A stretch of 64,000 nt of DNA from Mya arenaria. Taxonomy: Eukaryota. This document shows positions 31,432 to 55,577 of the stretch, piece after piece; within the stretch, counting starts at the first letter, position 1; every line of letters begins with the position of its first letter. The translations under genes and the position numbers were made by a program. The DNA is taken from positions 1,681,682-1,745,681 of the forward strand of contig NC_069127.1 of assembly GCF_026914265.1 (NCBI RefSeq), given 5' to 3'. The notes under the pieces were generated by a model. The model ran no database searches and had not been told where the DNA came from. It saw only the letters and a list, made by a program, of their open reading frames with translations.

Positions 31432-31575
31432 TTTCAGTGCAAGCGACGTCGAGATCCAGGCGATATATACAGTAAACAGACCAGTTGAGACCGCAAATTT
31501 TGCAAACAGCCTGAGTAACCCTCAATTACTGTACCACGCTACCAAGGCCAACAATATGGTTGGGATTTTGTCCAG
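31432..31575 (+). CDS. PARP4: PARP4 exon 9 (..VEIQAIYTVNRPVETANF..LLYHATKANNMVGILSR); in-frame alternative acceptor 6 nt downstream (31438)
   Basis: Two acceptors, gttag| and tttcag|, separated by 6 nt and both in frame. Donor CAG|gtagga at 31576. His of the H-Y-E motif is present (YHAT). Confidence 0.7.
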
Positions 31576-31769
31576 GTAGGAAGAAATAATAATACTGTAA
31601 AATACATTGTATTTAGCTTGATGCTTCAAATCCCAGCACTGATTTCTATTGGAATTAATAGATCAATTGCTTGCTTGTCAATAGGGGTATGCAATATGTC
31701 CTGTCTTGAGCACATATATACATGAATTCTGTTTTTAGTATGATAACAATGACCTACATTGATTTCCAG

Positions 31770-31868
31770 AGGTCTGATGATGCCACGTGTAGTAGTTGAT
31801 GACCACGGAGGTAAAAGGTCAGATCCAGGCATGCTCGGGTCAGGCATCTATTTCGCCAGTGCTGCAAG
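31770..31868 (+). CDS. PARP4: PARP4 exon 10 (RGLMMPRVVVDDHGGKRSDPGMLGSGIYFASAA)
   Basis: Acceptor atttccag at 31768-69. Donor AAG|gtggga at 31869. GSGIYFA is the PARP signature, Tyr present. Confidence 0.8.
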
Positions 31869-33347
31869 GTGGGAATACTTTTGAATACATTTCTATAATT
31901 TTCGATTCGACTCTCAACAAATGAAAGTTCATATAGGAAAACAGAGTCGCAAGTAAAAGATTTTAGATATATGGTTAGTTACATTTGAAGATCAAATCTT
32001 TGTTACCAGCTGCCATAAGTATAAAACTGGATAAGTTATACACAGTTTTTTGGCTAGTTTGCTCATAATACCTATTTGATTGGTCAACAGTAAGTATTGG
32101 ATAGGTTTTGACCAATCAATAAACATTTTGGCTAATTTTAACCAATCCAACGAATTAACCAGTTTTATACCATTGGTTACTGGTTAAAACAAGATAAAAA
32201 GAGTTCTTTTTTGCAAATTTTACATACTAAATTTCTGCTTAATATACAATATTTGGAATTTTTAGATGGGATCTCAAAATGTGATTTGGGATCTCACAGC
32301 TGACACTGTAAGAGTTTTAGACATAAAATAACAAATTCTTGCAAAAAGGGCTTCTCTCATAAAAAAATCAACACAAAGTTTTTAAGAACACAATATCTTT
32401 TTATGAAGTATCCTGAAAACAGTCTTTCAGCCTAGTAAAGTATTTATTTCATTTTTATTATTATGGAAAACTCCCATTTCCTTTTCAATTCAAGTTCATT
32501 CTTAAAATAATGGGTTTTAACTGCAAATGTTTTGCCATTTAAAGGATAATCAAGTTTGCCACATTTCAGCCAATTTTGATAACATTTGATTGAAAAACAA
32601 CAATTAATTATCACTAAAAAACTCACCTCTATAGTAGGTTTAGTACATTTTCAATACTGATCTTCTTACATAGTAAATGATTTTAATACAGCAAAAGCAT
32701 TCAAGCTGTTATATTATGTTCCATGTTAAAATACCATATTAATCTGTCAATTTAAATAACATGGTGCAATAAACAACTTGTCAAAAAACTTCATACTTCG
32801 GCCGACATCATTGCCTAGTTACAAGTATGCTACAAAAGACCACCAACTTATTAAAGACATTATAAAACTGTCAAAACAATAAAGAAAACAGCATTTCCAA
32901 GGTGTTATTAATTATCTACAGTGTATAAAATTTAACAACATTTTGGCAGGAAAATTGACATATACAGTTCTGCAGTCATCTGCACTTACACTCCGACCTG
33001 TTAGGGCAGTCTGATTTGATTTATTAAGCAGCTCTTCTGAATATAAACTTATTTTTACAAGTCAGAGGAAATATTCCTTCTGTTTCTCAATCAAAATCAC
33101 TGACATTTGACAATCTCCACCATGACGTATTTTTTATGAGTATTTTCTGAAAATCTAAAAATAGTAACAAATATCAAGTTTTTGTTTACATTGTTTCCAT
33201 CATTGTTTTTGATTGAAAATTAAAGGGATTAGAAATTCTTCCACTTTTGAACCCAAACTACCGCTTTTGAGAGCTAAATCTACCTCCTTGTCATTGCGAA
33301 AGGTTCACATGTGCCCTCAGTCATATCACCATCTATTGCAATTTCAG

Positions 33348-33531
33348 CACAAGCGTCAAGTACTCCTCTCCTAGCAACAGCAAGGGTACTCGGTTCATGT
33401 TAGTGAATGAGGTCGCCCTGGGCAACTGTAAGGAAATGTACAACCGTGACCTGACCTTGACCCAACCCCCAGAAGGCTATGACAGCATACATGGTGTGAT
33501 GAAGTCATGTGATGTTCAGTCAGAGTTTCAG
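33348..33531 (+). CDS. PARP4: PARP4 exon 11 (STSVKYSSPSNSKGTRFMLVNEVALGNCKEMYNRDLTLTQPPEGYDSIHGV..)
   Basis: Acceptor aatttcag at 33346-47. Donor CAG|gtgaaa at 33532. Near-identical to human STSIKYSHPGETDGTRLLLICDVALGKCMDLHEKDFSLTEAPPGYDSVHGV. Confidence 0.85.
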
Positions 33532-33934
33532 GTGAAAGCAACTTTTGTATTTGACTTGGAAAAAAACATGAACAAACTTGTAATCTGTAAACTTTATAAC
33601 CTTGAAAAATATTTTTGCTTTGATACAATTTCTATCATTGATTATATATGTCATCAGGACTTTTTACTCATTCTATGGAATCCTGTAGTTATGAAAGTAA
33701 GCTTTCATTTTGTGTCTCACCAGCTTATTATATCTCCATGAGCACAAAAACTTTCAATAGAATAATGATTAAGTATACTTAAACAATAATTTCAGGAAAC
33801 CATTACAAATTTTTTTCCATTGTTTTTAGTCATACTGTGTAATATTATGACTGTTATGGCCAATGGCTCAGTTGTGTCTTCACTGATCTAAGTTTATACT
33901 AGTTTAATGGTAAAAGAACAATTGGTTTAAGCCT

Positions 33935-34250
33935 TGTTAATCCTGTAAACTCATCTCAGGAAAGTTGAGCACGCCACAATAAATGTGTAATCCTGTAAAC
34001 TCATCTCAGGAAAGTTGAGAACACCAAAATAAATGTGTAATCCTGTAAACTCATCTCAGGAAAGTTGAGCACACCACAATAAATTTGTAATCCTGTTAAC
34101 TCAGTTTAGGAAAGTTGAGCACACCACAATAAATGTGAAATCTTGTAAACTCATCGTAGGAAAGTTAAGCACACCACAATGAATGTGTAATTCTGTAAAC
34201 TCATCTTAGGAAAGTTGAGCACATGGCCATTAATATGTAACTTTCCTGCA
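33935..34250. repeat. tandem repeat with a ~60-bp unit (TAATCCTGTAAACTCATCTCAGGAAAGTTGAGCACACCACAATAAATGTG)n, about 5-6 copies, ending at the exon 12 acceptor
   Basis: Direct tandem repeat in intron 11. Confidence 0.8.
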
Positions 34251-34251
34251 G

Positions 34252-34402
34252 GATGATGAGTTTGTGGTATACAGTGTTCGCCAGCAGAGGATTCGCTACC
34301 TAGTTGAGTTTACGACAACCAAGGACACTGTCTACCCATTTAAACTACCGGTCAGTCTGACTGAACAAGCCATGGACCAGGATGACCAGCCTGGACAGAT
34401 CA
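34252..34402 (+). CDS. PARP4: PARP4 exon 12 (DDEFVVYSVRQQRIRYLVEF.., catalytic Glu present)
   Basis: Acceptor ttcctgcag at 34250-51. I chose donor ATCA|GTGAGC at 34403 because its phase 1 matches the next exon. An alternative donor CCG|gtcagt at 34351 does not. Confidence 0.7.
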
Positions 34403-34559
34403 GTGAGCATCATTTTGTTCTTTATTGGAAAATGTTGAACATATCCCTACTTAAAGAACACTGTTAACTGTTATTTCATTTCCTTTAAAGTGAAGCAATA
34501 TGAACAGTTGTTGGTTGCAATTCCTTTACGAATGAACAACTTCTTTTGTCTTTTATTGT

Positions 34560-34960
34560 ATTTTGCTGACAATAACCTCTGAAAATATCCTTTTACAATG
34601 TACTCTGACAATATCCTCTGACAATATCTTTTGACAATATTCTCTGACAATATACTCTGACAATATATTCTGACAATATATTTTGACAATACCCTCTGAC
34701 AATATACTCTGACAATATCCTCTGACAATACCCTCTGACAATACACTTACAATATCCTTTGACAATATGCTCTGACAATATGCTCTGACAATATCCTCTG
34801 ACAATATCCTCTGACAATAAATTCTGACAATATCCTTTGACAATATGCTCGGACAATATCCTCTGACAATATCCTCTGACAATAAATTCTGACAATATCC
34901 TCTGACAATAAATTCTGACAATATCATCTGACAATATACTCTGGCGTAATTGGAGCAAGC
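34560..34960. repeat. microsatellite-like array with a 15-bp unit (CTCTGACAATATCCT)n, about 25 copies, in PARP4 intron 12
   Basis: The long minus-strand ORFs at 34471..34976 (ILSEDIVRGYCQ repeats) are repeat artefacts. Confidence 0.85.
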
Positions 34961-35044
34961 CCCAACAAACACTCATGTTTTATGAATGATTGAAGTTCAC
35001 CAGACCTGTAATCTCAGTAATCATGCTTTCCTGTAATTTCCCAG

Positions 35045-35175
35045 GTCTATCTGATGTGAAGGACATTATAGACCCTATGTCCAAGGTCAAGGCTGGGCTC
35101 GTCTCCATAGATGATGCCCCTGTGAACTTGAAGGCTGTCCATATCAGGGCAAACCTGATGGACCTAGCATCGGAG
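35045..35175 (+). CDS. PARP4: PARP4 exon 13 (start of VIT region: LSDVKDIIDPMSKVKAGLVSIDDAPVNLKAVHIRANLMDLASE)
   Basis: Acceptor tttcccag at 35043-44. Donor GAG|gtatgt at 35176. Confidence 0.75.
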
Positions 35176-35894
35176 GTATGTTGAGTTTTGCTTTGAATAG
35201 TTTAAGCTAAATTATGTAAGAAAATACAAAAAGAATTGTAATGACTATTTCTTTTTATAAAATACTTCAAGTTCATGCACAACAAGCTTGATCATCATAA
35301 AAAAAATTCAACACCATCATTCTGCAAAAAACATTTCTCAAATGTACCGTAACATGGTCCATTCAGATAGCATTTATATTTTTGTGATATTTAGTGGTCA
35401 TGGATCAATTGTCTTAGATAGGTGGTGGTTTTCCATTGGTATGAGAACTCAATAAAGGGGGAACAAGGTCCATGCAGTAGAATCTCCTTAATACTTGTCT
35501 CCCTTGTTATATTAAGGCATTCAATACACAATAATTTGAATTTGGATGTCTGGTGACTTCATACCATTTGGCATTTGGAAGGGTTTTATTTGCTAAGCAT
35601 TTATATGTATGTTAAATATATGCGAAAAAATAATATTACAAATTTGTTTTGCAGTGAAATATTGCAATTTGTGATTACATGTTCGATTTCAGTTGAAATG
35701 AAACAAAAATACAAACTGCTATAATTGTTAACTATAATATGCATTTAATCATTTATTTTTGATGATTATGATCAGCAAGTAAAACCCTTTTAAATATCGG
35801 TAACACCAAATTTATATGGAGTCAACAGGCATCAAAGTTCACATTATCAGCGATGGCATTATAAAATGACAAGCTGTTATGTGGATCAGGTTCC

Positions 35895-36262
35895 TTTAAA
35901 GCTGCACTCTCACAGATTTACTGTTTTTACAACTTCATAAAAAAAATATCATAGAATGAGCAATTTTTTGTGTAAATATCTGCATACCAGTGATACAAGA
36001 CTGCTGACAAAAGATCAGATTGCAGGTATTCATATTTCAGTTTGAATTAATGTGTTATGGCTTAAAGCGTTACTAATGGTTTAAGAAATCGCATAAAACA
36101 TCATTTTTTTAACTTATTATTAAATAAAAATCTGCGATCTAATTTTTTGTCAGCAGTCTTATATGACTGGTTTCCATGCATTTTCATATAAATTGGCTAG
36201 TTCCAAGACAAAAAATATTTTTTTTATCAAAACAGCCAATCTGTTAGAGTGCAGCTTTAAGG
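35895..36262. mobile_element. MITE (~370 bp) with ~28-bp TIRs (TTTAAAGCTGCACTCTCACAGATT) and a second internal inverted pair (GACTGCTGACAAAAGATCAGATTGCAG)
   Basis: Terminal inverted repeats at 35895-35925 and 36235-36262, immediately upstream of the exon 14 acceptor. Confidence 0.55.
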
Positions 36263-36288
36263 CAAATAATACAAATATGTCCTTGTAG

Positions 36289-36513
36289 GTGGTGGTTCTG
36301 CAGCAGTATGAGAACACCAGTAAGGTCCAGGTGGAGGCAAAGTATGTGTTCCCGCTGGGAGAAATGGCTGCCGTGTGTGGCTTTGAGGCATTCATCAATG
36401 GCAAACACATCATAGGAGAGGTGAAGGAGAAGGAGACAGCCCACAGGGAATACAAGAAGGCTGTCAGTGAGGGACATGGGGCATACCTTATGGACCAGGA
36501 TGAGGAAACACCG
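36289..36513 (+). CDS. PARP4: PARP4 exon 14 (VIT domain: ..EAKYVFPLGEMAAVCGFEAFINGKHIIGEVKEKETAHREYKKAVSEGHGAYLMDQDEETP)
   Basis: Acceptor ccttgtag. Donor CCG|gtatat at 36514. Long identical stretches to human PARP4 (AAVCGFEAFINGKHI, GHGAYLM). Confidence 0.9.
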
Positions 36514-36718
36514 GTATATGGGCGCTGGGGGTTAATATTAGAATTTGTGTTGCTTTAGGGCATTACAAACACTGGTATTTTGGCAGTATGTGTTAACATT
36601 AGGATAAGTGTTGCTGTAAATATCTGACTGTAAAACTGGGATAATTTAAAAGAACACTGCTGTAGGAATTTACGAACACCCTATAGTGGTGATGTGACAG
36701 TCCATCAAAGGGTAGGAC

Positions 36719-37221
36719 TTTAAAGGGACTATACACCAGATTGGCACCAATTTTTTTTTTTTCTGTAACAAATCTCAGGACAATTATTTAATAAAATGTT
36801 TTACTCTTTGATATCATAATTGTAAAAAAAATCCCAAAAATGTAAAAAAACATCGAATCGGAGACCAGGTTTGAACCGGTGTCGGCAAAATTGCAGTCCA
36901 GTGTTGTATCCACTGTGCTACGAAGGTTTACCCTAATCACTTGGAATATTTAAGCTATATACCTAACTTGGTAATATTACGTGATAACATCAACTAGCTT
37001 ATCATGCATAAGAATGAATTCTACTAGGTATACATACCTAGTAATCTATTTTAATGGAAAATACGTAAAAACTGCGAAAAATAAATTAATTGTAAACTAT
37101 GCGGTACTTCAATTAGTTAGTTTCAATGCAATGCACACATTGATATCAAGTTTATGTCAGTTTTCGACAATTTTTTTTTTTTTTTTGCAAATTCATTATA
37201 CAGTGTATAGCCCCTTTAAGG
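36719..37221. mobile_element. MITE (~500 bp) with TIR CTTTAAAGGGACTATACAC; contains a tRNA-like (Cys-GCA-like) segment on the minus strand at 36851..36930
   Basis: Inverted termini at 36719 and 37203-37221. The internal segment has A-box TAGCACAGTGG and B-box-like GGTTCAAACC, but the acceptor stem does not pair. I read this as a tRNA-derived repeat, not a tRNA gene. Confidence 0.5.
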
Positions 37222-37551
37222 GTTAAGAATTAAGAATACTTATTAGGTTTATTGTTACAGAGTCTTGTCAGTAATTGCAGTAAATGTCCATAGTTACCAG
37301 TTGTACATGTACTCTCTATAGTGCAATGTTGAAATGAGCAGACATAACTGCAAATATCTGTGAAAATAAATTAGAATGTAAAGTAATGCCTTTTTATAAC
37401 ATACATGTACTTTTTCAAATTATGCTAAAGATAATGATAATTAAGCATTTTACCATTAATACATTTTAATCATATATCTTGTGTCATGCTGTATTTTAAC
37501 TTAGAATGATGGTTTCTGTGTTCTAACATGTATTCCCCCTGTGCCTTCCAG

Positions 37552-37713
37552 GATGTGTTTACAGTGAGTGTTGGTAATTTGCCGGCAGGAGCAACTGTGC
37601 TTATTAAGATCACCTATGTCGCCGAGCTGCAGGTTGAGGGCGAGCTCATCAGCTTCCGCCTCCCGGGCTCCGTCGCCCCCTGGAAGAAAGACTCCCTCAA
37701 GGAAGTAACTCAG
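37552..37713 (+). CDS. PARP4: PARP4 exon 15 (VIT: DVFTVSVGNLPAGATVLIKITYVAEL..)
   Basis: Acceptor ccttccag at 37550-51. Donor CAG|gtacag at 37714. Human DVFTVSVGNLPPKAKVLIKITYITEL. Confidence 0.9.
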
Positions 37714-38170
37714 GTACAGAAATAAACTTGATACGATCTGCCAAGGTGTTTTATACTTTGTATTGTAAAATTATTGCAGAAGAATGCAAAACTGATGACA
37801 AAAGTACAATGGTAGGGGTGGTCTATCTGATGTGAAAGCTTGTTTCAAAAACCATTAAACACATTCAAATGAAACTAGTTACACATGTTGCCAGAGACAA
37901 TATGCTCATATACAGCAAGGCCCTTTGTCTGATTAATAATTGTAAAGTGATGCCCTTTTTTAGTTTAAAAAAGGTAAAAAACTTTAACTTAGCTATAAGA
38001 TATTAACTAGAAAGTTTTTTCAAATGTTACTTGGTACAAAATGAGCATGAACAGCAAAGTCCATTGATCTGGTTTTTATATTTTATCGTCAATTTGTGCT
38101 ACTTGACAGATTGAAAGTAAAATTAAATACCGAACAAGAAACTGATTTTAAGGATTGGATTTTTTTGCAG

Positions 38171-38284
38171 GAGCAGACTGGTACTTTTGAAGTACTGCAG
38201 GGTGAGACAAGTGTACAGATATCCGTGGATATGCCATTTGACATCCGGTCATTAGAGTGCCCCTCACACAATGTCAAAATGAAG
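38171..38284 (+). CDS. PARP4: PARP4 exon 16 (EQTGTFEVLQGETSVQISVDMPFDIRSLECPSHNVKMK)
   Basis: Acceptor tttttgcag at 38169-70. Donor AAG|gtaatt at 38285. Confidence 0.75.
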
Positions 38285-38519
38285 GTAATTTATTCACCAA
38301 TACTGGATGTCTCATAACATAAAGAAAGTATGGGTAGATCTTCCAATATTTATAATGGTAACTGATGTATCTGTTGATTCATTTATCCATTGATATGTAG
38401 GTATTAAAAAAAACAACAACACAAAATAAATACTGATAAATTGTTTCCTTGCCGTAAAAAAGACTTGAAATGTTTATGTTTCAAAACCATGGAAACCTTT
38501 TGTGTTCCTCTTGTTCTAG

Positions 38520-38657
38520 CGTACGTTGACTAAGGCGACGGTGGAGATGTTACCTGAGCAGTCTATAGCAGACGGGTTTCAGCTGCTTATTGGGCTGGCA
38601 GAGATACATGTGCCCAGAATGTGGGTAGAGAGAAAGACAGGAGACACAAACCATCAG
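38520..38657 (+). CDS. PARP4: PARP4 exon 17 (RTLTKATVEMLPEQSIADGFQLLIGLAEIHVPRMWVERKTGDTNHQ)
   Basis: Acceptor ttgttctag. Donor CAG|gtactt at 38658. Human ..GLSAAYLPRMWVEKHPE. Confidence 0.8.
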
Positions 38658-38923
38658 GTACTTAGTCGGTCATAGCGAGGGACAGATAGTATCTAGGTTA
38701 CTTTGCCTGTCCATAGTCTAAGGATGGGTTTCATCTGCTAATAATGTTAGAAGTTTATAGCAGTTTACTAAGAATCCCTTCCTTCTTACAAATTATAAAA
38801 CTAATGATTGTAACAGGATTGCCTGAAACCGACAGAGACAAAATGGAACAATGAAATTATTTTGTTGACTTTTTATTTCTCAGAAATGTTATGTTATACT
38901 TATTCATCTTGTTTAACTTGCAG

Positions 38924-39110
38924 GCATGCATGCTGACATTCTACCCACAGTTTGAGGCTTGTGAGTCTGAGACCTCTTGTGTTACTTTTCTACTTGACCT
39001 GTCCAACTCCATGAAGGGTGACACACTGAGTAATGCCAAGAAAGTTCTCCTCCTATCCCTCCAGCTTTTGCCTGCAGCCTGGACATTCAACATTGTTGTG
39101 TTCGGAACTG
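38924..39110 (+). CDS. PARP4: PARP4 exon 18 (start of vWA: ACMLTFYPQFE..VTFLLDLSNSMKGDTLSNAKKVLLLSLQLL..NIVVFGT)
   Basis: Acceptor aacttgcag at 38922-23. Donor CTG|gtcagt at 39111, phase 1 out. Human ACMLVFQPDL..IICLDCSSSMEG..NIIQFGTG. Confidence 0.85.
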
Positions 39111-39457
39111 GTCAGTATTACCACTGTTGTCGATGGACCTTAAAATGAAGGTCTTTTATGGTATCATTATAATTTCCAATTTTAACAAAATGTACCCTGC
39201 TCCATCTGCTATTCTTTGCTTCCCCTTTATGTGGATTTGGCTGAACCACAACAAACTGGCTTAAGAAAGATTCAAGAGCCCAAATGTTCTTTTGACAATA
39301 GCATTCTCATTCTGAATTCTGAAAGTTTTGTGATGTGTTAAAACCTGAGATATTTGTAAAGAACTTTACTATTTGTTTCTTATGTATTCAGTCTCATTCA
39401 TGGCTTGTTTAGTTAGTGTTAATTATGGAAATCTTTACTTTGTATATCTGATTTCAG

Positions 39458-39531
39458 CATTTAAAGAGCTGTACCCTGTGTGTATGCCTAAGACCACAGC
39501 ACGTGTGAAACAGGCTTCAAACTTTATCATG
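39458..39531 (+). CDS. PARP4: PARP4 exon 19 (AFKELYPVCMPKTTARVKQASNFIM)
   Basis: Acceptor gatttcag at 39456-57. Donor ATG|gtatga at 39532. Confidence 0.7.
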
Positions 39532-39806
39532 GTATGAATGACACATGCACGTGTATCTGTATTAAGTTTTGATGTACTTTATTTTTGATAAAACTATTGG
39601 TTAAAGATCTTGAAATATTCTTTAATGGTTGGTACTATAGTTAGCACATTAATTTGATGTCATTTCACACCTAGTAAACTGTCTGTCTATATATATTCAG
39701 TACAGTTTAATATTCTTACATTTGACTGGTTTGTTGTCTAACGTTAAAGGGTCATCAGATTTAGGGTATTCCTGTTTTTGCATTTTGAACTATTTTGTTT
39801 GTGCAG

Positions 39807-39994
39807 GGCTTGACAGCAACCCTTGGCAACACGGAAGTTATCCGACCCATGCACACATTCTACCTGCTGAAGCCTGAGTCATCCATGCAGAACGTCTTCC
39901 TCATCTCTGATGGACACGTGAACAACACGGACGTAATATTGGAGGCAGCCAGGCGGAATGCAGAACATACAAGGATTTTTACCATGGGTGTCAG
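39807..39994 (+). CDS. PARP4: PARP4 exon 20 (vWA: GLTATLGNTEVIRPMHTFYLL..VFLISDGHVNNTDVILEAARRNAEHTRIFTMGV)
   Basis: Acceptor tttgtgcag at 39805-06. Donor CAG|gtgatt at 39995, phase 2 out. Human MGNTDF..ILLVSDGHLQDES..RPHTRLFACGIG. Confidence 0.85.
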
Positions 39995-40454
39995 GTGATT
40001 ATAGTTTGTGCTTTTAAACACAATCTACATTAAATAAAAAAAATGTCTTTGTCCTCCTGTGTGAAAAGTTCTAAATGTTTGTGATTGTGATCTTAAGTGT
40101 TTATATTTTCAACCTATCTCCTTGCTCTTGTAATGGCTGCCATGTGAAACTTCATACAAGTTGCATTGTGAGCACTGTTTATCAATTTTGGGTGTAAGAT
40201 TTTCAGAGGTGTCCATTTAAGAAAAAGAAGACCATTTTCATGTTCATCAATTTATCTGAATAGAATTATCGTCATAAACAGAATGATGATACTAGTAGAC
40301 CTTATACAACGACAACAGCAACATCAACAACAAACTATTTGAACTGAGGTTAAACTATGCCACTAGGATTCTACAAAAAAAACTGTATTTAAGAATTCAA
40401 TACATATATTTGAAATCACACAATTGTAACTACATGCAAACAATGTATTACCAG

Positions 40455-40554
40455 CTCGACAGCAGACACCCACATGTTGAGATCCCTGGCCAGGGTTGGA
40501 GCAGGGGCCTATGAGTTCTTCGATCCCAAAGTCAAGTCCAAGTGGGAGGGAAAG
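40455..40554 (+). CDS. PARP4: PARP4 exon 21 (SSTADTHMLRSLARVGAGAYEFFDPKVKSKWEGK)
   Basis: Acceptor ttaccag at 40453-54. Donor AAG|gtaaga at 40555. Human STANRHVLRILSQCGAGVFEYFNAKSKHSWRKQ. Confidence 0.85.
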
Positions 40555-40955
40555 GTAAGATGGGATTTATGCTGAGCTATTTTCATTCATTTTGCATTCA
40601 ATTTTTATCATGATCTCATCTGTTTGTGATCAAGTTTTAAAAATATATTTGTATCAATTAAAATCTGAAATGTCAGCTGTTATTTTAAACCATTTAGGAT
40701 ATTTTAATGACTCTTGGCACACATGTTCATAATGACATAACCCACATATTATTATAATTATAATCAGGGGTGAGAATCTTGCATGGATTGAGTTTTTTGT
40801 CTTCTAAGCAAATATCTTTAAATGCAATCTTTAAGGCTTGTAAAATACTCCAAACCCAAGTTTTGAGAGGTCTTCACCCCCTGTGTCCCCTACCAAGGTC
40901 GTACCCTGGACCACTAGCGTAAAGTTCAGGGATTTTTCTATTCAGTCATTCTAAC

Positions 40956-42007
40956 TAGGGATGCAAACGAATATTCGAATATTCGAATATTCGATCAAAC
41001 GTTTGGTATTCGAATGGCAAAATCGGTATTCGAATATTCGAAAAAAATGTTGAATAAATAAAATAAAAAAACCTTTGACCTACAAGGCTGCAATTGTGTA
41101 TTTAGTTCTTTTGTCATGTTTTTACAATGATTGGCCCCTAATGCCAGAGGTGTGAATGTGATGACAATACACTAAACACGCGTCATATGTCATTTAGGGA
41201 CATATCGCCTGGTACTATAAAAAGTCCCCGTAATTTTACAACTTGCTATTGGACAAGTGACACCAATGCCTTTGCCAATTAAGGATTTAAGGAAACGGCC
41301 TTCACACTAATGTGCTGTCTTGGTTCACACTGATGTGCTATCTTGGTTCACACTAATGTGCTGTCTTGGTTGCAGATTAAGCTATGCAACATTGCTCAAA
41401 TTGCCGTGATACTATGTATGGCATTTGCTACAATAATGCAGATACATGTATGTGCTGTTAACTGTTTTCCATGTTTCGTTGCACTGTTCTTGCTTTGAAA
41501 TGTTACTGTATAGTATAGCGTTTTAGGATATATTGCCTCTATTGATGTAGAAGAATCAAATTGATATATGTTTCGTTTTATCATTTTACAAGTTCCCGAG
41601 TTGGTTTGGTATATAAGGTAGAGGTCTATCCCAGAACGAGACTGCTCGTCCTACGGAAAGACCCTCCGTTGGCTCATTACGCCATATGATTAGGAATCCA
41701 TCTAATTTCACATTGTTTCACAATATGAAGGCAGCGGAATTATTCGATTTTGATTTTTGATTGTTCATAATGAATTACCGTTTTCTATATAAAAATGGGG
41801 AATTTCAGAGACTCATATGGGGAAATAAGGGTCCGCTGCGCGTAGTTGCTACAACAAAGAAGGATCAAAATGAATTGGCTATTACTTAAGCGAATGATAA
41901 TAATAGTTTAATACAACTTTGAAAAGATGTATTTTGGTTATCGAATATTCGATTGAAAGAATTACCGAATATTCAAATATCAATTTTGCCATTTGTTTGC
42001 ATCTCTA
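40956..42007. mobile_element. non-autonomous hAT-like element (1052 bp) with Ac-like TIRs TAGGGATGCAAAC / rc TAGAGATGCAAAC and a perfect 8-bp TSD ATTCTAAC; in PARP4 intron 21
   Basis: TSD at 40948-55 and 42008-15. The TIR resembles the Ac/Ds terminus TAGGGATGAAA. Subterminal GAATATTCGAATATTCG repeats at both ends. Confidence 0.65.
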
Positions 42008-42094
42008 ATTCTAACCCCTGCTTTGTGATAAATCTCATCATTTGATTATGACTTGCCATGATCTAATACTGACAACCATATCTACATATGGCAG

Positions 42095-42265
42095 GTGAAA
42101 AGCCAGCTAGGGAGGGCATCCCAGCCAGGGCTGACGTCTGTGCATGTGAACTGGGAGCAATATGGGGCTGATGTCCCGTCCCCTGTGCAGGCCCCTCGAC
42201 AGATCACAGCAGTCTTCAGTGGATCCAGACAAGTCATATATGGATATGTCCAGAACTGTACGATG
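42095..42265 (+). CDS. PARP4: PARP4 exon 22 (VKSQLGRASQPGLTSVHVNWEQYGADVPSPVQAPRQITAVFSGSRQVIYGYVQNCTM)
   Basis: Acceptor atatggcag at 42093-94. The donor ATG|gtgcga at 42266 is weak and is supported only by frame continuity into the next exon. Confidence 0.65.
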
Positions 42266-42599
42266 GTGCGAAAACAGTTATATACAACCCTTAAATGCAT
42301 TTAATATCTTGGTTTGCAACTTGTACATTTTAATGATTATTTTATAATGATATTATTATTATTAAGTTCTTTTGGACACAGCGGTGCTCAGAGAAATGTT
42401 ATACACAATTGGATTAAATGCTTTCTTAAATCTCTATCTCAGGAGTGTCATGTGATCATTCTAAATATAACAATCATGATTCTCTGAAATTAAAAGCTGC
42501 AGTTGCATTTTTCCAGTAATTTTTATTCTTTTGATTTTAAATATTGTTTCATTTGAAAATAAGCATAATGTAAGACAGTTACTCTAAGGTGTAAATAAG

Positions 42600-43050
42600 T
42601 ATTGGTTATTGAATTTAATCAAGTATGGTTATTGAATTAAATTAAGTATTGGTTATTGAATTAAATTAAGTATTGGTTATTGAATTAAATTAAGTATTGG
42701 TTATTGAATTTAATTAAGTATTGGTTGTTGAATTTAATTAAGTATTGGTTATTGAATTTAATTAAGTATTGGTTATTGAATTAAATTAAGAATTGGTTAT
42801 TGAATTAAATAAAGTATTGGTTATTGAATTTAATTAAGTATTGGTTGTTGAATTTAATTAAGTGGTGGTTATTGAATTTTATTAAGTATTGGTTATTGAA
42901 TTTAATTAAGTATTGGTTATTGAATTAAATTAAGTATTGGTTATTGAATTTAATTAAGTATTGGTCATTGAATTTAATTAAGTATTGGTTATTGAATTTA
43001 ATTAAGTATTGGTCATTGAATTTAATTAAGAATTGGTTAGTGAATTGATT
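42600..43050. repeat. minisatellite with a ~30-bp unit (GTTATTGAATTTAATTAAGTATTG)n, about 14 copies, in PARP4 intron 22
   Basis: Direct tandem repeat. Confidence 0.85.
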
Positions 43051-43149
43051 TGGCCACCTCTAAATTGTTTTATTTCCTGAAGCCTGTGATTTTCTAATGT
43101 ATTATAGCTGCCTCAGTGTAAGTACATGTTACACTCAATGTGTCTTCAG

Positions 43150-43230
43150 GCAACATTACGAGCCCAGATAGCAGGTGATGAGGTCTCCACCATGGTCTCC
43201 ACCTCTGACCTCAGCATTACAGAAGGCAAG
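43150..43230 (+). CDS. PARP4: PARP4 exon 23 (ATLRAQIAGDEVSTMVSTSDLSITEGK)
   Basis: Acceptor gtcttcag. Donor AAG|gtatgg at 43231. Human QATLCALIQEKEFRTMVSTTELQKTTG. Confidence 0.8.
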
Positions 43231-43534
43231 GTATGGTGTTGAAATAAGACAAGCATTTTCAAGTGAATGTCTTCTCAACAGACAATTCTTAAAGACACAC
43301 ATATGAAGGACAAAACCTTTTTTTTATTTGAAATATATTTCATGCATTTTGTAGATAATACCAATGAAATTGACACAATGTTTAAACTTTTTTTCCAAAA
43401 GTATTTTCAAGTAAAATGGAATCTTGTATCTTCTGAAATATCTTATATGATAAGTCGGTGAAAAATGGATATTGCCATGTTTATGGCTTAATTCAAATGA
43501 CTGTGTCATCTCATGTTGAAACTGTTTTCTACAG

Positions 43535-43615
43535 CTCCTGCACCGTTTAACAGCAAGGGCAGTAATTCGGGACTGGGAGGATGGAATGCTCTCCCCTGAC
43601 AGGACAGACCATGAG
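43535..43615 (+). CDS. PARP4: PARP4 exon 24 (LLHRLTARAVIRDWEDGMLSPDRTDHE)
   Basis: Acceptor ttttctacag. Donor GAG|gtgggc at 43616. Human MIHKLAARALIRDYEDGILHENETSHE. Confidence 0.85.
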
Positions 43616-43639
43616 GTGGGCTTATTGTATGAAGATTGA

Positions 43640-44200
43640 AATCTAGGACCAGGATTAAATGATGAACATGGAAATAAGTGATATGGTTTACTTGATGAAC
43701 ATAATATGGGATCTGGCTTAGGTTATGACCATAAAAATGCAGGATCTGACTGAGGTCACTGATGTGTAAACGTACATGTAGGCTCTGGCTTTTGTCATGG
43801 CCATTAAAATGTAGGATTTGGCTTAGTCCATGACTACATATATAAATGAACTGGCATATTCTTTGATATTGGAAATGCAGAATCTAGCTTAGTCTATAAT
43901 TTTTAAATGCAGAATCTGGCTTAATTTATGCTGTGGAAATGAAGAATCTGGGAAAAACAGTATATGGCTTAGGCTATGACCACGGAAATGTAGGATCTGG
44001 CTTAGTCAATGACCATGGAAATGTTGGATCTGGCTTAGTCAATGACCATGGAAATGTAGGATCTGGCTTAGTCTATGACCATGGAAATGTTGGACCTGGC
44101 TTAGTCAATGACCATGGAAATGTAGGACCTGGCTTAGTCAATGAACACAGAAATATAGGCTTAGGCTTGGCCTATGACAACAGAAATGTAGGATCTGGGA
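43640..44200. repeat. minisatellite with a ~33-bp unit (ATGACCATGGAAATGTAGGATCTGGCTTAGTCA)n in PARP4 intron 24
   Basis: Direct tandem repeat. Track ORF 43933..44322 (DHGNVGSGLVN repeats) is an artefact. Confidence 0.85.
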
Positions 44201-44287
44201 AAGAAGGTATCTGGCTATGTGTATGGACAGGAAATAGTAAGATCTTCCTCATACACATGAAAATGCATATTATTTTGTTGATTTCAG

Positions 44288-44389
44288 ATCATGAAGATGA
44301 ACACAAAGGACTTTATAATTGAGCTGAGCAAGGAGTATTCAATTGTGACACAGTTTACCAGCTTTGTTGCCATAGAGAAGAGAGACAAG
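44288..44389 (+). CDS. PARP4: PARP4 exon 25 (IMKMNTKDFIIELSKEYSIVTQFTSFVAIEKRDK)
   Basis: Acceptor gatttcag at 44286-87. Donor AAG|gtgggt at 44390. Human SLIIKLSKENSLITQFTSFVAVEKRDE. Confidence 0.85.
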
Positions 44390-47583: not shown

Positions 47584-47687
47584 GTCAGCCAAAGAAGCAG
47601 CCACTGATAAATGTGAATGTTAGAACTTTAACTGGGAAAACAGTGAGTGTTGATGCCTCCCCTCACTCTTCTGTGGAGGAGTTAAAG
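47584..47687 (+). CDS. PARP4: PARP4 exon 29: first half of the ubiquitin-like domain (SQPKKQPLINVNVRTLTGKTVSVDASPHSSVEELK)
   Basis: Acceptor ttgtttttttaag at 47582-83, phase 1 in, which matches exon 28. Donor AAG|gtaagt at 47688. NVRTLTGKTVSVD parallels ubiquitin IFVKTLTGKTITLE. Confidence 0.7.
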
Positions 47688-47689
47688 GT

Positions 47690-49250: not shown

Positions 49251-49427
49251 GCGTTGATCCAGGATCGCGAGGGGATTCCTCCTGATCAACAGCGACTCAT
49301 ATACGCAGGCCGACAGCTAGAGAATGGACAGACCCTTGAGGACTTCAATATACAGAAGGAGGCAACATTTCACCTTGTACTGAGTCTACGTGGAGGACCT
49401 GATAATGCTCGAGGCACTGATTTGTGA
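49251..49427 (+). CDS. PARP4: PARP4 exon 30: second half of the ubiquitin-like domain ([58 protein letters not shown]); a possible alternative 3' end at 49423 via the GTGAGT donor that overlaps the stop
   Basis: Acceptor ttttttacag at 49249-50. Compare ubiquitin [48 protein letters not shown]. Stop TGA at 49425-27 sits inside GTGAGT (49424-29). The N-terminal part of track ORF 49038..49427 is intronic. Confidence 0.75.
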
Positions 49428-50519
49428 GTATTGGCTGTAAAGTGAGATTGTGCATTTTCGTCTTTGGTTCAATATATGTTGCATCACATGATTCTTGGCC
49501 TTAAAGTTTGGTGCCTTTATATAAAAATTGAAGTAGGGGATACACTTTGAATGAGTTTAACTACAAAAATAACCTAATGATATCTAATTTTTGCCCAAAT
49601 AATTGATTTTGAGCCAAAAATCATGTGTTGCAACAGACTCTGGTTGTGTGACTAGAGCTGAAAAAAACACTTGTTTAGCTCCGTCCTCATGGAAGATGAG
49701 CAGAACAGCGTGCAAATATAAGCTGTTCCAAAAATAATTATAATTATGCAATTAATATTATGATATTTTAAAAAAGCAAAATCACATAAAATAATTGTTT
49801 GATTTAAATAAAATTTCATTTTTTTTTCAAACTCTGTTTAAAAGGAGATATTTGTACCGGTAAGATCTTTTTGAAACCAACTGTGACTTTAAATAATTGT
49901 ACGGCATCGCAACATTAAACAATGATACTGTGAGCTGTTTTGTTAAATCGACTAAAACATGATTTTAATTTCAACTTTTATACAATTTAGAAAAGGTTTG
50001 CCAGAAAAATGATCAATTATGTTTTTCTGCTATGGAAACAATCTGCCCCTCAGGCATGGTGTATAGCTGGTAACTTGGTAAGCGGCATATTCTGCTTTTG
50101 CTAGTGCTCTTAGGTCGGATTTGCGATCTGAAATGTTAACAAAAGTATGTTAAAGATAGGACACATGTGTAGACCCGGTAAATGATTTTATTTCATCTGT
50201 GAAAGGTTGAAAACCTGCCAGTCCAGTTTGCATTATGTTTGAGTAATTAAAATGATATTTTAGTTTAAACCTTTAATCCAACAACCATTCTAAAATAGAT
50301 GGTAACATTTTAGTTTTACTACATGACAACTGAGAAAAAATATATGAACTTATGTGCTTGCTTGGATAGACATTGCTTGCTACAGGCTGTGTTGGCAAAA
50401 ATAAAAATGCCAAAATAAATAATAAGTAATTATTATTTAATGTGTGTGAGATGTCCTCTTTAGTTATAAAATATATACATTATAGATGCAGCATATCTGA
50501 CAACACTTTTCGTAAGCAG

Positions 50520-51400
50520 AGAAGGTAAGCATGTCCTGAAATCTTTTTCACCAGAAACGCTCGAGAAAACTACCCTCACACTATTTTCACCAGAAACCCT
50601 CTAGGACACTGCCTTCATCCTTTATTTACCAAAACCCCTCTAGGACACCATCACCCAATTTTCACTAGTAACCCACTAGAACACTGCCTTCACCCTAATT
50701 CCATCAAGGACACCACCTTCATCTTTTTTTCGCCAGAAACCCTCCAGGACACCTCCTATTCACTATTTTCACCTGGAACGCTCTAGATCACTGCCTTCAA
50801 CCTATTTTCACCAGAATCCCTCTAGAACACTCATCCTTATATCACCAGAAACCCCCAAGGACACTGCCTTCACCCTAATTTCACCAGAAACCCATCTAAG
50901 ATACCACCTTCACCCTATTTTCACCAGAAACCCTCTAGAACACTGCCTTCGCCCTATTTTCACAAGAATCCCTCAAGGACACCTCCTTCACCCTGTTTTC
51001 ACCAAAACCCCTTTAGAACAATGCCTTCACCCTGTTTTCACGAGAAACCCTCTAGAACACCGCCTTCACATTGTTTTAACCAGAACCTCTCTGGAATACA
51101 ACCTTCACCCTATTTTCACAAGAAACCTACTAGAACACAATCTTCACTCTATTTTCACCAGAAACCCTAGAGAACACTGCCTTCACCCTATTTTCACAAG
51201 AAACCTACTAGAACACAACCTTAACCCTATTTTCACAAGAAACCTCTTAGAACACAACCTTCACTCTATTTTCACCAGAAACTCTCTAGAACACTGCCTT
51301 CACCCTATTTTCACCAGAATCCCTCTAGAACACTGCCTTCACCCTATTTTCATCAGAAACTTTCTAGAACACCGCCTTCACCATAATTTAATAGTGAAAG
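50520..51400. repeat. minisatellite with a ~45-bp unit (ACCCTATTTTCACCAGAAACCCTCTAGAACACTGCCTTC)n, about 19 copies
   Basis: Direct tandem repeat downstream of the UBL exon. Confidence 0.85.
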
Positions 51401-51960
51401 AATTTTTGCGCCCAGGAACTACTTGGTTTGCCAATTGGTCATGACTTGTAGTTGACCCCTATTGATTCTTGGTTCAGTTGGTCAAAGGTCAAGGTAACAG
51501 TGACCTTCAGGGGAAAAACAGTTTCCAGTTATGACAAAAAAACACTTGTACTCAGGAATGTTATACTTGGTATGCCAGTCAGTCATGATTAGTTGATTGC
51601 CCCTACAGATTTTCAGGCCAATTGGTCAAAGGTCAAGGTGACCTTGAGGTAAATTAACAGTTTCCGCTGAATAATTAAAGAATGATTGGGCCCAGGAACT
51701 TCATACTTCCTGTTCTAGTTGGTCTTGAGAAGTAGATGACCCCTATTGATTTTGAGGTCAGTAGGTGAAGGTAACAGTAACCTTCAGGTGAAAAAACAAC
51801 AACAATTTGTTGGTCACCAGTCCATACCTTACACTTCTTTCTGCTCAATAACTAAAGAGCGTTTGGACCCAGGAACTTCATACTTGGATCATGAACATTC
51901 GTACTTGTTATGCAGGTTGGTCATGACCAGTAAATGACCCCTATGTTTGTGTGTCTCCAG
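51400..51960. repeat. four tandem copies of a ~150-bp unit (..CCCAGGAACTTCATACTTGG..GACCCCTATTGATT..GGTCAAAGGTCAAGGT..)
   Basis: Direct repeats, related to 47090..47420. Confidence 0.75.
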
Positions 51961-52290
51961 TCCAAAAGTACAAATTTAATGTACGACCACACAAAGGGGG
52001 AGACAAATGCTTTTTCAAAAAAGCAATCTGTAGTTAACGCAAGTGTGTTATCTACAGTAAATTTTTGTATATCAGTGTTATGAGTGCATATTTTTTTTAT
52101 ACATGTCAAATTCAATCTTTCTCTCTTAATTGTAGGGTTTTGGTGATACAAAATATTACTGACAAGTTCTGTTTGAACAGAACATGGCCTTGGACTTTCA
52201 TATTAGTAAGGTTTGAATGAGAAAATTTATATTGTTGATTTCTGATTATATTTATTTAACTGTATATCAAAAGTTTTATATGGGTTACAG

Positions 52291-52353
52291 TGAAGTGAAC
52301 CAAGAGAGGGGTCTTTTTTCATCGCGGAAAAAGGCAAAGAGGAAGAAGAAAAG
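52291..52353 (+). CDS. candidate exon A downstream of the UBL exon: (F)EVNQERGLFSSRKKAKRKKK, a basic NLS-like patch
   Basis: Acceptor gggttacag at 52289-90. Donor AAG|gtttga at 52354. Only phase 2 in is open, which matches the GAT TT|GTGAGT donor at 49424. Phase 2 out matches the next candidate exon. Confidence 0.4.
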
Positions 52354-52599
52354 GTTTGAACATTTGTAAATGTACTTTCTTTAAAATTAAAATTAGTTTA
52401 AAGAGATAAGTAATAAGCTTGCAGAACATAAGCCATATTTCGAGAAAAAAATGGGAAATTGACATTTTAGAAACTAGAAATATAATGGCTATGTCTTGTA
52501 GGCAAACTGTGTAAACATAACGTGTGTAGGATAGAAACTGATGTCACAGCCGATGTGTTTTAAAAACACCTTCATTTTAAACATTTATCTATTATGTGT

Positions 52600-53190
52600 T
52601 TTAATGGAAAGTAGACATTTTATAGACAAGTGAAAGTAGTCCCATCAAATTCTGACTTACCTGGTATCATTAGTTTACACATCCAGCATCATTAATTCAC
52701 ACGGCAGATATAATTAGTTCACACAGAAGCTATCAGTAGTTGACAAATCAGATATCAGTAGTTAACAGACCCAGTATCAGAATTTCACACACCTGATATA
52801 AAAAGTTCACATGGCAGATATCATAAGTTCATGCACCTGATATCTTTAGTTCACACAGCAGATATCAGTAGTCCACACAGTGGATATCAGTAGTCCATAC
52901 ATCAGGTATCAGAAGTTTACACAGCAGATATCAGTATTCCACACTACAGATATCAGTAGTTCACACAATGGATATAAGTAGTTAACACAGCAGATAACAG
53001 TAGTTCACACAACAGATATCAGTAGTTCCCACAATGGATATAAGTAGTTCACACAGCAGATATCAGTAGTTCACACAACAGATATCAGTAGTTCACACAA
53101 TGGATATAAGTAGTTAACACAGCAGATATCAGTAGTTCACACAACAGATATCAGTAGTTCACACAGCAGATATCAGTAGTTCACACATCA
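52600..53190. repeat. minisatellite with a ~21-bp unit (CAGATATCAGTAGTTCACACA)n, about 28 copies
   Basis: Direct tandem repeat between candidate exons A and A'. Confidence 0.85.
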
Positions 53191-53319
53191 GAATGATTTA
53201 AAATGATTTTTGATGCCTGTGAATAATAGTAAAATTGAAGGGAATAAGTTTTGTGTATGTAATGTCTCCAAATGAAGTAACTGTCAGTTTAAATGGTCAT
53301 TCCTATTTCTTCATGCCAG

Positions 53320-53408
53320 TGTTGGAACAGCGCTGTCCATGGAAGAACATTATTCAACATTGGATTATTCAAGATGTGGTTATGCATCCTTGGCTGAGCT
53401 AAGAAATG
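53320..53408 (+). CDS. candidate exon A': (S)VGTALSMEEHYSTLDYSRCGYASLAELRN
   Basis: Acceptor catgccag at 53318-19. Donor ATG|gtattg at 53409. Phase 2 in and phase 1 out chain A to B. It contains an in-frame ATG, so it could also be the first coding exon of a separate downstream gene. Confidence 0.4.
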
Positions 53409-53764
53409 GTATTGTACCTTAAGACCAATTTATAGTGATTGTTTGTTTTGCTGTCCCGGATTGTTTTAAGTAGGGGGACTTCTTTATTTTAGCATTAAAC
53501 AAGACAACAACATGCTCGCTATATAGGTCTTGTTTACTCAAGTGTGAAAGCTGTTTTGATGGGTTGGAAAAGACACTGCAAACAACTGATTTTTGGAAAT
53601 TCATTTTAAGTTAAGGTTTGCAAAATATCACCTTTGTCTTAATATCTTCTTCTTTTATCAAGCTAGAGTTTTAAGCTGTTTAATAGGTTGATACAATGAT
53701 TTGCATATGCCTATATACTAACCAGTATTTGCAATGAATATCCGTTAATTTCTACATTTTTCAG

Positions 53765-53814
53765 ATTCAATGGAACAAAAGATGGATCCAGATGAACAAG
53801 AAACCTGGTCAGCG
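53765..53814 (+). CDS. candidate exon B: (D)SMEQKMDPDEQETWSA
   Basis: Acceptor tttttcag at 53763-64. Donor GCG|GTGAGT at 53815. Phase 1 in, phase 0 out. Confidence 0.5.
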
Positions 53815-54457
53815 GTGAGTTTTGTTTCAGTCTGTATTGAGGCTCTGACAGTAGTGTTTTAACTAAGGAACTTTGGTCAGAAAAAATCATCTCAAAATAA
53901 GAGCTATATAACAAGTGGCCAGGGATTGAACCTCTCCCCATCTAATATCAAAGTAGATCTTTTAATCGCTGGGCTCTCATTATGCAAGTAAACTGTGTAT
54001 CACTACCTTCATACATAGGTCTTTTTATTCATCTATCTATATTGTCAAAGAAACAAGCTTTTTACACCAAAGTTATATAATGACTGCATTGCAGCTCTGA
54101 TATGGTCTCTTCTCTATGAAAGAAAGTAGATAGCTGATATCTTGAAATGTCTGCATGAATGCAGGGATGTCTTGAATTTGACTTTGTGGCTGAATTTTAG
54201 TCCTTTTCCACACATTTTTTTTTTATATATTTCACCATTTTGAGATTTAAAAAATCTCCAAACTGCCCTTTCAGGGAGAGAAAGATTTGACAATGTTATA
54301 CTGCATTTCTTCCCTTTTCTGACAAATTACCGCTGTGGAATGGCCTTCACCTCATTCCCTTTCAACTGAAAAACCTAGACTGCATATATCCATTATGTAG
54401 TGCCTTTAGTTGAGGGAGGTTCAAAGGTGCTTATTGCTGTCACATATTGCTTTTCAG

Positions 54458-54547
54458 TGCGAGAAACTACAGGAGGAAGTCTATGAAGAACTGTCTCCTG
54501 AAAGGTGTTTTGCTGAGCCGATTCGATATGATGAACAAGAAAGGATG
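54458..54547 (+). CDS. candidate exon C: CEKLQEEVYEELSPERCFAEPIRYDEQERM
   Basis: Acceptor cttttcag at 54456-57. Donor ATG|GTAAGG at 54548. Phase 0 to 0. Confidence 0.55.
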
Positions 54548-54924
54548 GTAAGGATTGGATGCAAATGGTCGAGTTAGAAGGCATATAGACTAAAGAGCTA
54601 AGATGTTTGTTAATCCAACTCCATAAGCTTGTTCTCTGATAGCTCCATTTATGTTAAATAAATGCCTTGTGACCCCATATAATTTTGATATCATTTAAAA
54701 GGCATTCAAAAAATACTGACTTGTTTATTCATTTGTGATGGAAACATCGTTATCGGTTGCATTAGATAGGTCAAGGCCTGGGTTTGGTTTCTAGGTGAAT
54801 GATTCTAGGGCTCGGTGGACCTTCTTGTGATGAAAAAATAATTCAACAGCAAAATTCTTCATGCATTAGTTTAAACTTGTATATTTTACAACATTATATT
54901 AATCACTCTCATTTGCATGATATT

Positions 54925-55040
54925 ACGTGAGAGTATGGTCTTGTGTTTTGGGGGAAACGGGAGTATCTGGAGGAAACCCACTTATCTGGCTTGGTGACCA
55001 CAAACCAAAAGCTTCATGCATTGAGCTGCCATAGGACCTG
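54925..55040 (+). mobile_element. fragment of the SINE family seen at 835..1012
   Basis: Shared segment cttgtgtt..gg.aaac.ggagta.c.ggag.aaac.cacttatctggcttggtgaccac. Confidence 0.4.
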
Positions 55041-55118
55041 TTATGATTCAATGATGATGAAACAGGTACTGTAAGGAGGTACATTGAGTTAAACACTTAA
55101 AATGCCCCTCTTTCATAG

Positions 55119-55337
55119 TTAGTGGCTTCAGATGAAGATTTGGATGAAGATTTGGATGAATGTATGTATGAGGAGGTCTATGATGATGTCAGATACATGG
55201 CAGCAAGCCCCAACTACTCGCCCACAAATCCTGCCTACTCACTGACAAGTCCTGCCTACTCACTGACAAGTCCTGCCTACTCACTGACAAGTCCTGCCTA
55301 CTCACCAGCAACTCCTGCCTACCAACAAAAGCCAAAG
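55119..55337 (+). CDS. candidate exon D: acidic stretch plus CTD-like heptads ([73 protein letters not shown])
   Basis: Acceptor tttcatag at 55117-18. Donor AAG|GTAATG at 55338, phase 0. Five tandem heptads Y-S-[PL]-[TA]-[NST]-P-A resemble the RNA Pol II CTD consensus YSPTSPS. The next exon would lie beyond the transposon-like block or off the window. Confidence 0.55.
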
Positions 55338-55577
55338 GTAATGACCCTGTTCTTGTCCATTTTATTGACAATATGTAAATGTATCACAATAATCACATAA
55401 TATATGTTGTGCCTCCTGTTTGGGAGACAAGCTCAGTTTTCTTTGGCTGTCTGTCCCTGTTTGGTTATTTTGTTGAATATTTTCACTTAGTTGAGCCGCT
55501 ATGTGAATACACGCCCTGTTACCTTTCTAATAAGCTTATTATCAGCCCTGCATCACGATAAAGGGGTGCGGGGTGAT

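Follow-up and report, generated by a model that had tools for sequence, protein, structure and literature searches.

A 64,000-nucleotide stretch of the Mya arenaria genome (forward strand of contig NC_069127.1, positions 1,681,682 to 1,745,681; hereafter the window) carries on its + strand a gene that sequence comparison identifies as an orthologue of PARP4 (vault PARP, clade 5). This gene includes a ubiquitin-like domain (UBL) whose reading frame runs into a TGA embedded in the hexamer GTGAGT. We lean towards the view that the hexamer is a 5′ splice site and the TGA intronic, so that the UBL is internal in PARP4 and the frame continues into a tail of candidate exons designated A, A′, B, C and D. 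The initial annotation, which did not recognize the host as PARP4, had offered two scenarios: a gene with two isoforms, the long one using the donor and having the UBL internally, or an independent downstream gene starting at an in-frame ATG in A′. The first is the better supported, through the scores of exon D, an 18-mer that D has in common with a pre-UBL exon, collinearity with Lingula and the internal UBL of a sponge protein, but the probability argument advanced for it fails. What is new is only the combination of domains, in that PARP4 here has a near-canonical ubiquitin inserted and carries heptads like those of the RPB1 C-terminal domain (CTD), and architectures of this kind have already been noted.

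The assignment of the host to PARP4 follows from exon-by-exon matches and from Pfam PARP, VIT, VWA and weak BRCT matches on exons that are continuous with the UBL exons. Exons from 29.6 to 44.4 kb (29616..44389, + strand) encode the regulatory helical region, the PARP catalytic domain, VIT and VWA, as judged by Pfam and by tblastn with PARP4 homologues, which they match one by one (P0129, P0131, P0148 and others). The concatenated exons give Pfam matches to PARP (1.4e-33), VIT (8.6e-34) and VWA_3 (4.6e-12), and a single exon at ~24.8-25.1 kb has a weak match to BRCT_2 (20.5 bits against a cutoff of 27.3). The best identities are to an oyster fragment (~73%, in the VIT domain) and a snail model (~48%, over most of the query); the protein collections compared appear to extend to proteins of ~1000 aa and hence offered no full-length PARP4 models. 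As in PARP4 generally, PARP regulatory and catalytic, VIT and VWA domains follow one another in this order, here preceded by the tentative BRCT-like exon, and the conserved ...IIELSKEYSIVTQFTSFVAIEKR... and ...VD.L.YMGW... exons are followed by a long, poorly conserved C-terminal region. The Mya arenaria gene differs in having a ubiquitin fold inside this region, and a predicted tail built from acidic-Tyr motifs, a basic patch and CTD-like heptads. The vertebrate MVP-interaction domain (PF26156) had no match in the window in tblastn searches with the C-termini of P0132 and P0123, and may lie beyond the window end or be absent from the lineage. An actin domain was also looked for in the window and not found.

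Four upstream exons, at 44288-44389, 44939-45031, 45947-46123 and 46982-47057 on the + strand, are in frame with the exons of the UBL. The exon at 44939 (DEEKRSVDAPAMSELVEREDVDKLQYMGYEE), in phase 0 at both ends, can be aligned with the sponge PARP4-like protein P0188 (E = 1.4e-4). The exon at 45947 encodes a putative helical linker and has AG/GT borders, phases of 0/0 and 0.30 bits per codon in frame, with no homology support. The last of the four, the acidic exon at 46982 (LEEVYDDWDLDEDFNFESTFMRKRM), is phase-consistent, aligns to an acidic block in Lingula and contains the 18-mer GAGGAGGTTTATGATGAT, which recurs only in exon D.

The ubiquitin fold itself is encoded by two exons, the second of which is what had previously been called the UBL exon. 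Exon 1 (47584..47687, +; SQPKKQPLINVNVRTLTGKTVSVDASPHSSVEELK; ...INVNVRTLTGKTVSVDASPHSSVEELK) encodes the N-terminal half of the fold and aligns to ubiquitin residues 3-27. Exon 2 occupies 49251..49423 (+), limits that correct the earlier ones, and leaves in phase 2, with 2 nt left over. Over both exons the Pfam ubiquitin profile (PF00240) matches at 5e-25, with 87.5 bits against a cutoff of 25.4 and profile positions 1-72 covered; the match to ubiquitin in the PDB is at ~5e-30, and 48 of the 76 UBL residues (63%) are identical to ubiquitin. L8, I44, H68, V70 and LRGG are kept, K6, K33 and K48 are replaced by R, and K29 by L. The beta-grasp fold and the intact L8/I44/V70 patch are shared with ubiquitin and with integral UBL-domain proteins such as RAD23, ubiquilin and parkin. 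The UBL found here differs from these in being embedded near the C-terminus of a protein that is likely well over 1000 aa long, in having R at position 48, and in that Pro directly follows the LRGG. Ubiquitin-Pro bonds are known to be poorly cleaved. Given this property and the Pro after LRGG, the junction should resist deubiquitinases, and cleavage and conjugation of the UBL are unlikely; it probably serves as an integral ubiquitin-like interaction surface.

Two minisatellites adjoin these exons. One, at 47643-48841, consists of ~26 units of 42-45 nt and represents the final 45 nt of UBL exon 1 (VSVDASPHSSVEELK) expanded in tandem. The array begins within the coding exon and crosses the real donor (47688) into the intron, and each unit opens with a GTGAGT/GTAAGT-like hexamer. 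Decoy donors thus line up behind the real 5′ splice site, and the first GTGAGT (47643-48) is part of the coding sequence (Val-Ser). The other, at 45047-45713, has a 49-nt unit, repeated ~13 times, that reproduces the 3′ end of exon 44939-45031 together with its donor (ATATGAGGAG|GTATGGCC). In two consecutive introns of PARP4, then, the sequence opens with tandem copies of the intron's own exon-intron junction.

The position of the TGA (49425-27) within GTGAGT (49424..49429, +), reported in the initial annotation, is borne out by the sequence. It would act as a stop only upon intron retention, when read-through ends after one codon. A phase-2 intron that starts with GTRAGT reads NNG-TRA, which is a stop by construction and truncates intron-retaining transcripts. 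The stop in the donor is therefore not remarkable, since it is automatic for a phase-2 GTGAGT intron; the arrangement NN|G TGA GT is identical to that of other stop codons in the 5′ splice-site consensus (GT[AG]AGT, phase 2), without any difference, and because it is generic for phase-2 consensus donors the headline observation is ordinary. Read-through reaches a stop within 1-20 codons at all of the delineated donors (11/11), and the UBL exon differs from the other exons only as the phase-2 GTGAGT case. With a rough consensus matrix the donor at 49424 scores 0.8, lowered by the exonic TTT, and accepted neighbouring donors score alike (0.3 for exon 45947 and 1.3 for exon 46982). For annotation more generally, an open reading frame (ORF) that seems to end at a stop embedded in GTRAGT should be read as running into the start of a phase-2 intron.

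If the donor at 49424 is used, it would begin a phase-2 intron of 2.9 to 3.9 kb with which the TGA is spliced out of the mRNA. The frame would then run on into A′, either directly or by way of A, a basic cassette of 63 nt, and from there through B, C and D; since D itself ends in a donor, the frame probably extends further still. The earlier description of these exons largely stands: each lies after AG and before GT, their phases (2>2>1>0>0) chain into one open frame, and A has no open frame other than the one entered in phase 2. The end of D is moved from 55340 to 55337 (AAG|GTAATG, phase 0), where the frame is still open. Also as described, the translated tail contains the basic patch RKKAKRKKK, acidic blocks and SPxYSxT heptads.

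Exon A (52291..52353, +; EVNQERGLFSSRKKAKRKKK) resembles a nuclear localization signal (NLS), its RKKAKRKKK corresponding to the classical monopartite pattern and thus predicted as an NLS in an exon that is itself weakly supported (acceptor 1.2, donor -0.9); the K-rich patch aligns with KVRKKKKKTG of Lingula. Exon A′ (53320..53408, +; VGTALSMEEHYSTLDYSRCGYASLAELRN) has the strongest acceptor of the series (4.7), a weak donor (-2.5) and a codon score of about zero. Both splice sites are good in exon B (53765..53814, +; SMEQKMDPDEQETWSA; acceptor 4.1, donor 7.0) and in exon C (54458..54547, +; CEKLQEEVYEELSPERCFAEPIRYDEQERM; acceptor 3.6, donor 5.2), and C holds a further EEVY[DE][DE] copy. Exon D (55119..55337, +) encodes an acidic block, EEVYDD and about six SPxYSxT heptads, with the donor GTAATG next to it at 55338; if the sequence after D were read through, 20 further residues would precede a stop at TAA 55398-400. 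The heptads form a 21-nt tandem repeat at 55224-55322 (4.7 copies; TRF, Tandem Repeats Finder) and match Pfam RNA_pol_Rpb1_R (PF05001) in two stretches with 21.7 bits against a cutoff of 20.3, a resemblance at the level of the repeat only, as the protein is not RPB1. Like the YSPTSPS heptads of the RPB1 CTD, they are tandem 7-residue units (Y-S-P/L-T-S/N-P-A); unlike them, they number only about six, have the consensus SPAYSLT and reside in a host other than RPB1.

Exon D also links the tail to the exons before the UBL. The 64 kb contain a single further copy of the EEVYDD-encoding 18-mer GAGGAGGTTTATGATGAT of the acidic exon at 46982, located in exon D, compared with a chance expectation of 0.01 matches, and the two copies differ by a single synonymous change (GTT>GTC). 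A third copy of the motif, EEVYEE, is found in exon C. When ORFs were scanned in six frames for 20-residue windows with at least ten D/E plus an aromatic residue, exon D was the sole acidic-aromatic window in the 64 kb. A recent segmental duplication was considered as a source of the shared motif and rejected, the DNA similarity between the pre-UBL region and the tail consisting of only the 19-nt motif and intronic fragments resembling short interspersed elements (SINEs). Because extended DNA similarity is absent, the sharing of EEVYDD is a similarity at the level of the motif.

The PARP4 loci of other animals point the same way. In Lingula and Tegillarca, + strand ORFs of the acidic-aromatic kind are confined to the PARP4-like gene and the sequence that directly follows it, apart from an ER dipeptide repeat in Lingula. 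Just past the PARP4-like VWA and LPYIGW exons of Lingula lie exons, an acidic-Tyr one among them, with SSDEEEYGEDLF, RKKR and SPAYSPTSPSFYQ, then LESSSDMEDLDMQLFDFDTDSVKMGARM...KVRKKKKKTG, and an exact YSPTSPS heptad (within SPAYSPTSPS) is present at the equivalent place. With the UBL deleted, the protein predicted from the window is collinear with the C-terminal segment of Lingula PARP4, from exon 46982 through A to the start of A′. In Lingula anatina (L004 13506-17303), a PARP4-like model of 422 aa ends by intron read-through and joins the next annotated gene in frame, and the start of that 751-aa gene is an ATG within a polypyrimidine tract, 35 nt before an AG; the two models are probably one gene. 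The C-terminal region of Lingula also has FG-like repeats and long proline runs. In the annotated C-terminus of the Tegillarca PARP4-like protein, acidic-Tyr blocks are spread over long introns.

A precedent for an internal UBL is found in the sponge Dysidea avara, whose PARP4-like protein P0188 comprises VWA, a linker, an internal UBL, a stretch of acidic residues and an actin-like segment. The exon of this UBL (L002 21823-22057) ends in a donor beyond which read-through would meet a stop two codons on, and the protein continues. PARP4-like proteins with ubiquitin-related or actin C-terminal domains have been described (Perina et al. 2014, PMC4245714). In P0188 and these appended-domain proteins, as probably in the gene studied here, the UBL is C-terminal to VWA and internal to the protein. 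The sponge UBL has lost the GG and is followed by an actin-like segment, whereas here LRGG is kept and followed by a tail predicted to be disordered. The distribution of the UBL in animal PARP4 is patchy and may reflect one or several origins.

Several results weigh against an internal UBL followed by a spliced tail, beginning with the exon chain. The initial annotation had put the probability of five compatible junctions by chance at about (1/3)^5; this is invalid, given that the exon borders were picked among many AG/GT candidates. Nor are the five phase matches independent, because A is 63 nt long, a multiple of 3, and skipping it keeps the frame. A null was provided by a crude dynamic programme that scores open AG...GT segments by their splice sites and by codon log-odds derived from 830 homology-confirmed PARP4 codons, and selects for each 6-kb window, over both strands, the highest-scoring chain with compatible phases. 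The tail scored ~28 bits, inside the null range of 3-47 bits for apparently non-genic or antisense windows, and confirmed PARP4 windows scored 110-240. The control windows often gave chains of 3-5 exons and 260-700 nt, several of them with 5 exons. An exon chain with consistent phases should accordingly be weighed against a proper null before it is taken as evidence. When started at 49424 in phase 2, the programme found B, C and D again, but in place of A and A′ it used a repeat-derived linker, and the weak donors of A and A′ make the links through these two exons weak. Codon scores for A′, B and C are also near zero (-0.06, -0.04 and 0.03 bits per codon, with 0.25 for A and 0.28 for D), where confirmed exons score 0.09-0.67 (leave-one-out) and null ORFs average -0.19. 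The codon score has little power on low-complexity exons, since the accepted acidic exon at 46982 scores just 0.00. B and C have total scores within the null range in spite of their good splice sites, and only exon D stands out individually: with 25.1 bits it falls within the range of the confirmed PARP4 exons, and no antisense candidate from 13 to 64 kb scores as high.

The linker exon introduced by the programme (51478-51569) is spurious and stems from a copy of an element resembling a SINE or a miniature inverted-repeat transposable element (...GGTCAAAGGTCAAGGT...). Copies of this element lie at 47088-47109, 51474-51495 and 51619-51639, in introns before and after the UBL exons.

The homology searches contribute further points on the opposing side. 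The tail without its heptads had zero hits in 1.84 billion representative proteins (HMMER), and when the pre-UBL region and the tail were used in a word-indexed search, the matches were confined to RPB1 CTDs and two distant PARP4 fragments. Exons C and D had no match in metagenome contigs, and a search that included the UBL was swamped by polyubiquitins and uninformative. Against the Tegillarca C-terminus the tail gave no significant BLASTP match, so that this resemblance is compositional only. The Lingula alignment scores 49 by Smith-Waterman against 31 +/- 6 in composition-preserving shuffles (p = 0.013); it is supportive and not decisive, as the comparison was picked after inspection and p is only ~0.01. 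The Lingula annotation splits the region into two genes, the second being the 751-aa one. In Tegillarca, Candidula, Lingula and Acropora no UBL was found within ~10 kb downstream of the PARP4 locus, so that these relatives offer no counterpart of the UBL-to-tail junction. Finally, nothing convincing as a terminal exon was seen after D up to 64 kb, and the 3′ end of the gene was not located in the window.

These points bear on three other readings. The gene could be regulated to make two isoforms, splicing at 49424 competing with intron retention or intronic polyadenylation, with a substantial short PARP4 and a long form carrying the NLS-like, acidic and heptad segments. The TGA immediately past the donor fits such a gene, as do the poor exonic side of the donor (TTT|GT, overall score 0.8), the frame-neutral 63-nt cassette with its basic patch, and an LRGG with a short extension, which recalls the precursors of ubiquitin-like modifiers. 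A candidate poly(A) signal for the hypothetical short isoform is the AATAAA nearest to the TGA on its 3′ side, 380 nt away (49807..49812, +); this hexamer is non-discriminating, as one of six AATAAA/ATTAAA in a 2.9-kb AT-rich intron, and together with a stop within 20 codons in every intron this means that such features are expected by chance. The Pro straight after GG would also speak against processing as a modifier precursor. We regard regulated isoforms as doubtful. As with any intron, retention or intronic polyadenylation may yield a truncated product, here one ending in ...GTDL, and regulation is not indicated. That the stop-containing donor is a genuine switch between a short, ubiquitin-ended and a spliced, long PARP4 seems to us very improbable. 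Were it true, the short form would present LRGG plus a 9-residue propeptide, to be trimmed to expose GG and attached to targets or kept as a built-in ubiquitin signal; the spliced form would bury the ubiquitin and add an NLS-like patch and CTD-mimicking heptads, redirecting the enzyme from cytoplasmic vaults to the nucleus.

PARP4 might instead end at the TGA at 49425, with A′ to D (or B to D) forming an independent downstream gene for a small acidic heptad protein. The in-frame ATG in A′ (MEEHYSTL...) invoked by the initial annotation does exist, the donors of A and A′ and the acceptor of A are weak, and Lingula is annotated with the equivalent region in a separate gene of 751 aa. An acceptor as strong as that of A′ would be unexpected for a first exon, however, and a T occupies position -3 before the ATG. 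The start of the second Lingula gene, in a polypyrimidine tract and in frame with the PARP4-like model, argues against its separateness. The EEVYDD 18-mer is common to D and the pre-UBL exon, the collinear Lingula alignment spans the position of the UBL, and no such protein of <1000 aa was found in the collections searched, nor was the hypothetical tail protein present in the protein collection in an exact look-up. The very strong A′ acceptor and the shared motifs thus disfavour a separate gene, which we consider unlikely. The tail could also be non-coding, consisting of chance ORFs and a 21-nt minisatellite that happens to stay open, or of decayed pseudo-exons. The window is AT-rich, minisatellite-rich animal DNA in which minisatellites with open frames abound, and the null-range chain score, the lack of homologues found and the codon scores of ~0 for A′, B and C speak for this explanation. 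Against it stand exon D, whose score matches those of confirmed exons, which has no rival as an acidic-aromatic ORF in the six frames and which has its 18-mer in common with an upstream exon with only a synonymous difference, the strong acceptors and donors of B and C, and the agreement with Lingula in the content and order of motifs. A non-coding tail is thus quite improbable.

Under the favoured reading, with the UBL internal in PARP4 and the TGA spliced out, a near-canonical two-exon ubiquitin fold would have been inserted in this lineage into a motif-rich, disordered C-terminal stretch that follows VIT and VWA. This stretch would comprise EEVYDD/DLDEDF acidic-aromatic blocks, basic patches and CTD-like SPxYSPT heptads. 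Candidate short linear motifs, which might serve nuclear import or partner docking, are EEVY[DE][DE] in its several copies, the basic patch and the SPxYSxT heptads. A lophotrochozoan PARP4 would then have a disordered C-terminal region with a ubiquitin domain (I44 patch intact, LRGG-Pro), EEVYDD repeats and heptads. If confirmed, this would add to the known links of clade-5 PARPs with ubiquitin-related modules and provide short motifs with which partner recognition by invertebrate PARP4 could be tested.

Other parts of the window have different content. Upstream of PARP4, two exon-sized ORFs at 9390-10162 (+) resemble scavenger-receptor cysteine-rich (SRCR) domains on reading of their sequence and would belong to an unrelated gene. 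Large satellites occupy 13008-16787 and 20135-21767; one has a 55-nt unit in 69 copies with 92% identity and ~50% GC, and the other a 30/90-nt unit with strong negative GC skew, its long open frames being repeat artefacts. The region at 57197-61033 (-) has the look of a transposon-type insertion. A 687-aa ORF (58196-60259), for which the protein collection has no exact match, lies there together with lysine-rich ORFs (60241-61033) and a Cys-rich, PHD-like ORF (57197-57439).

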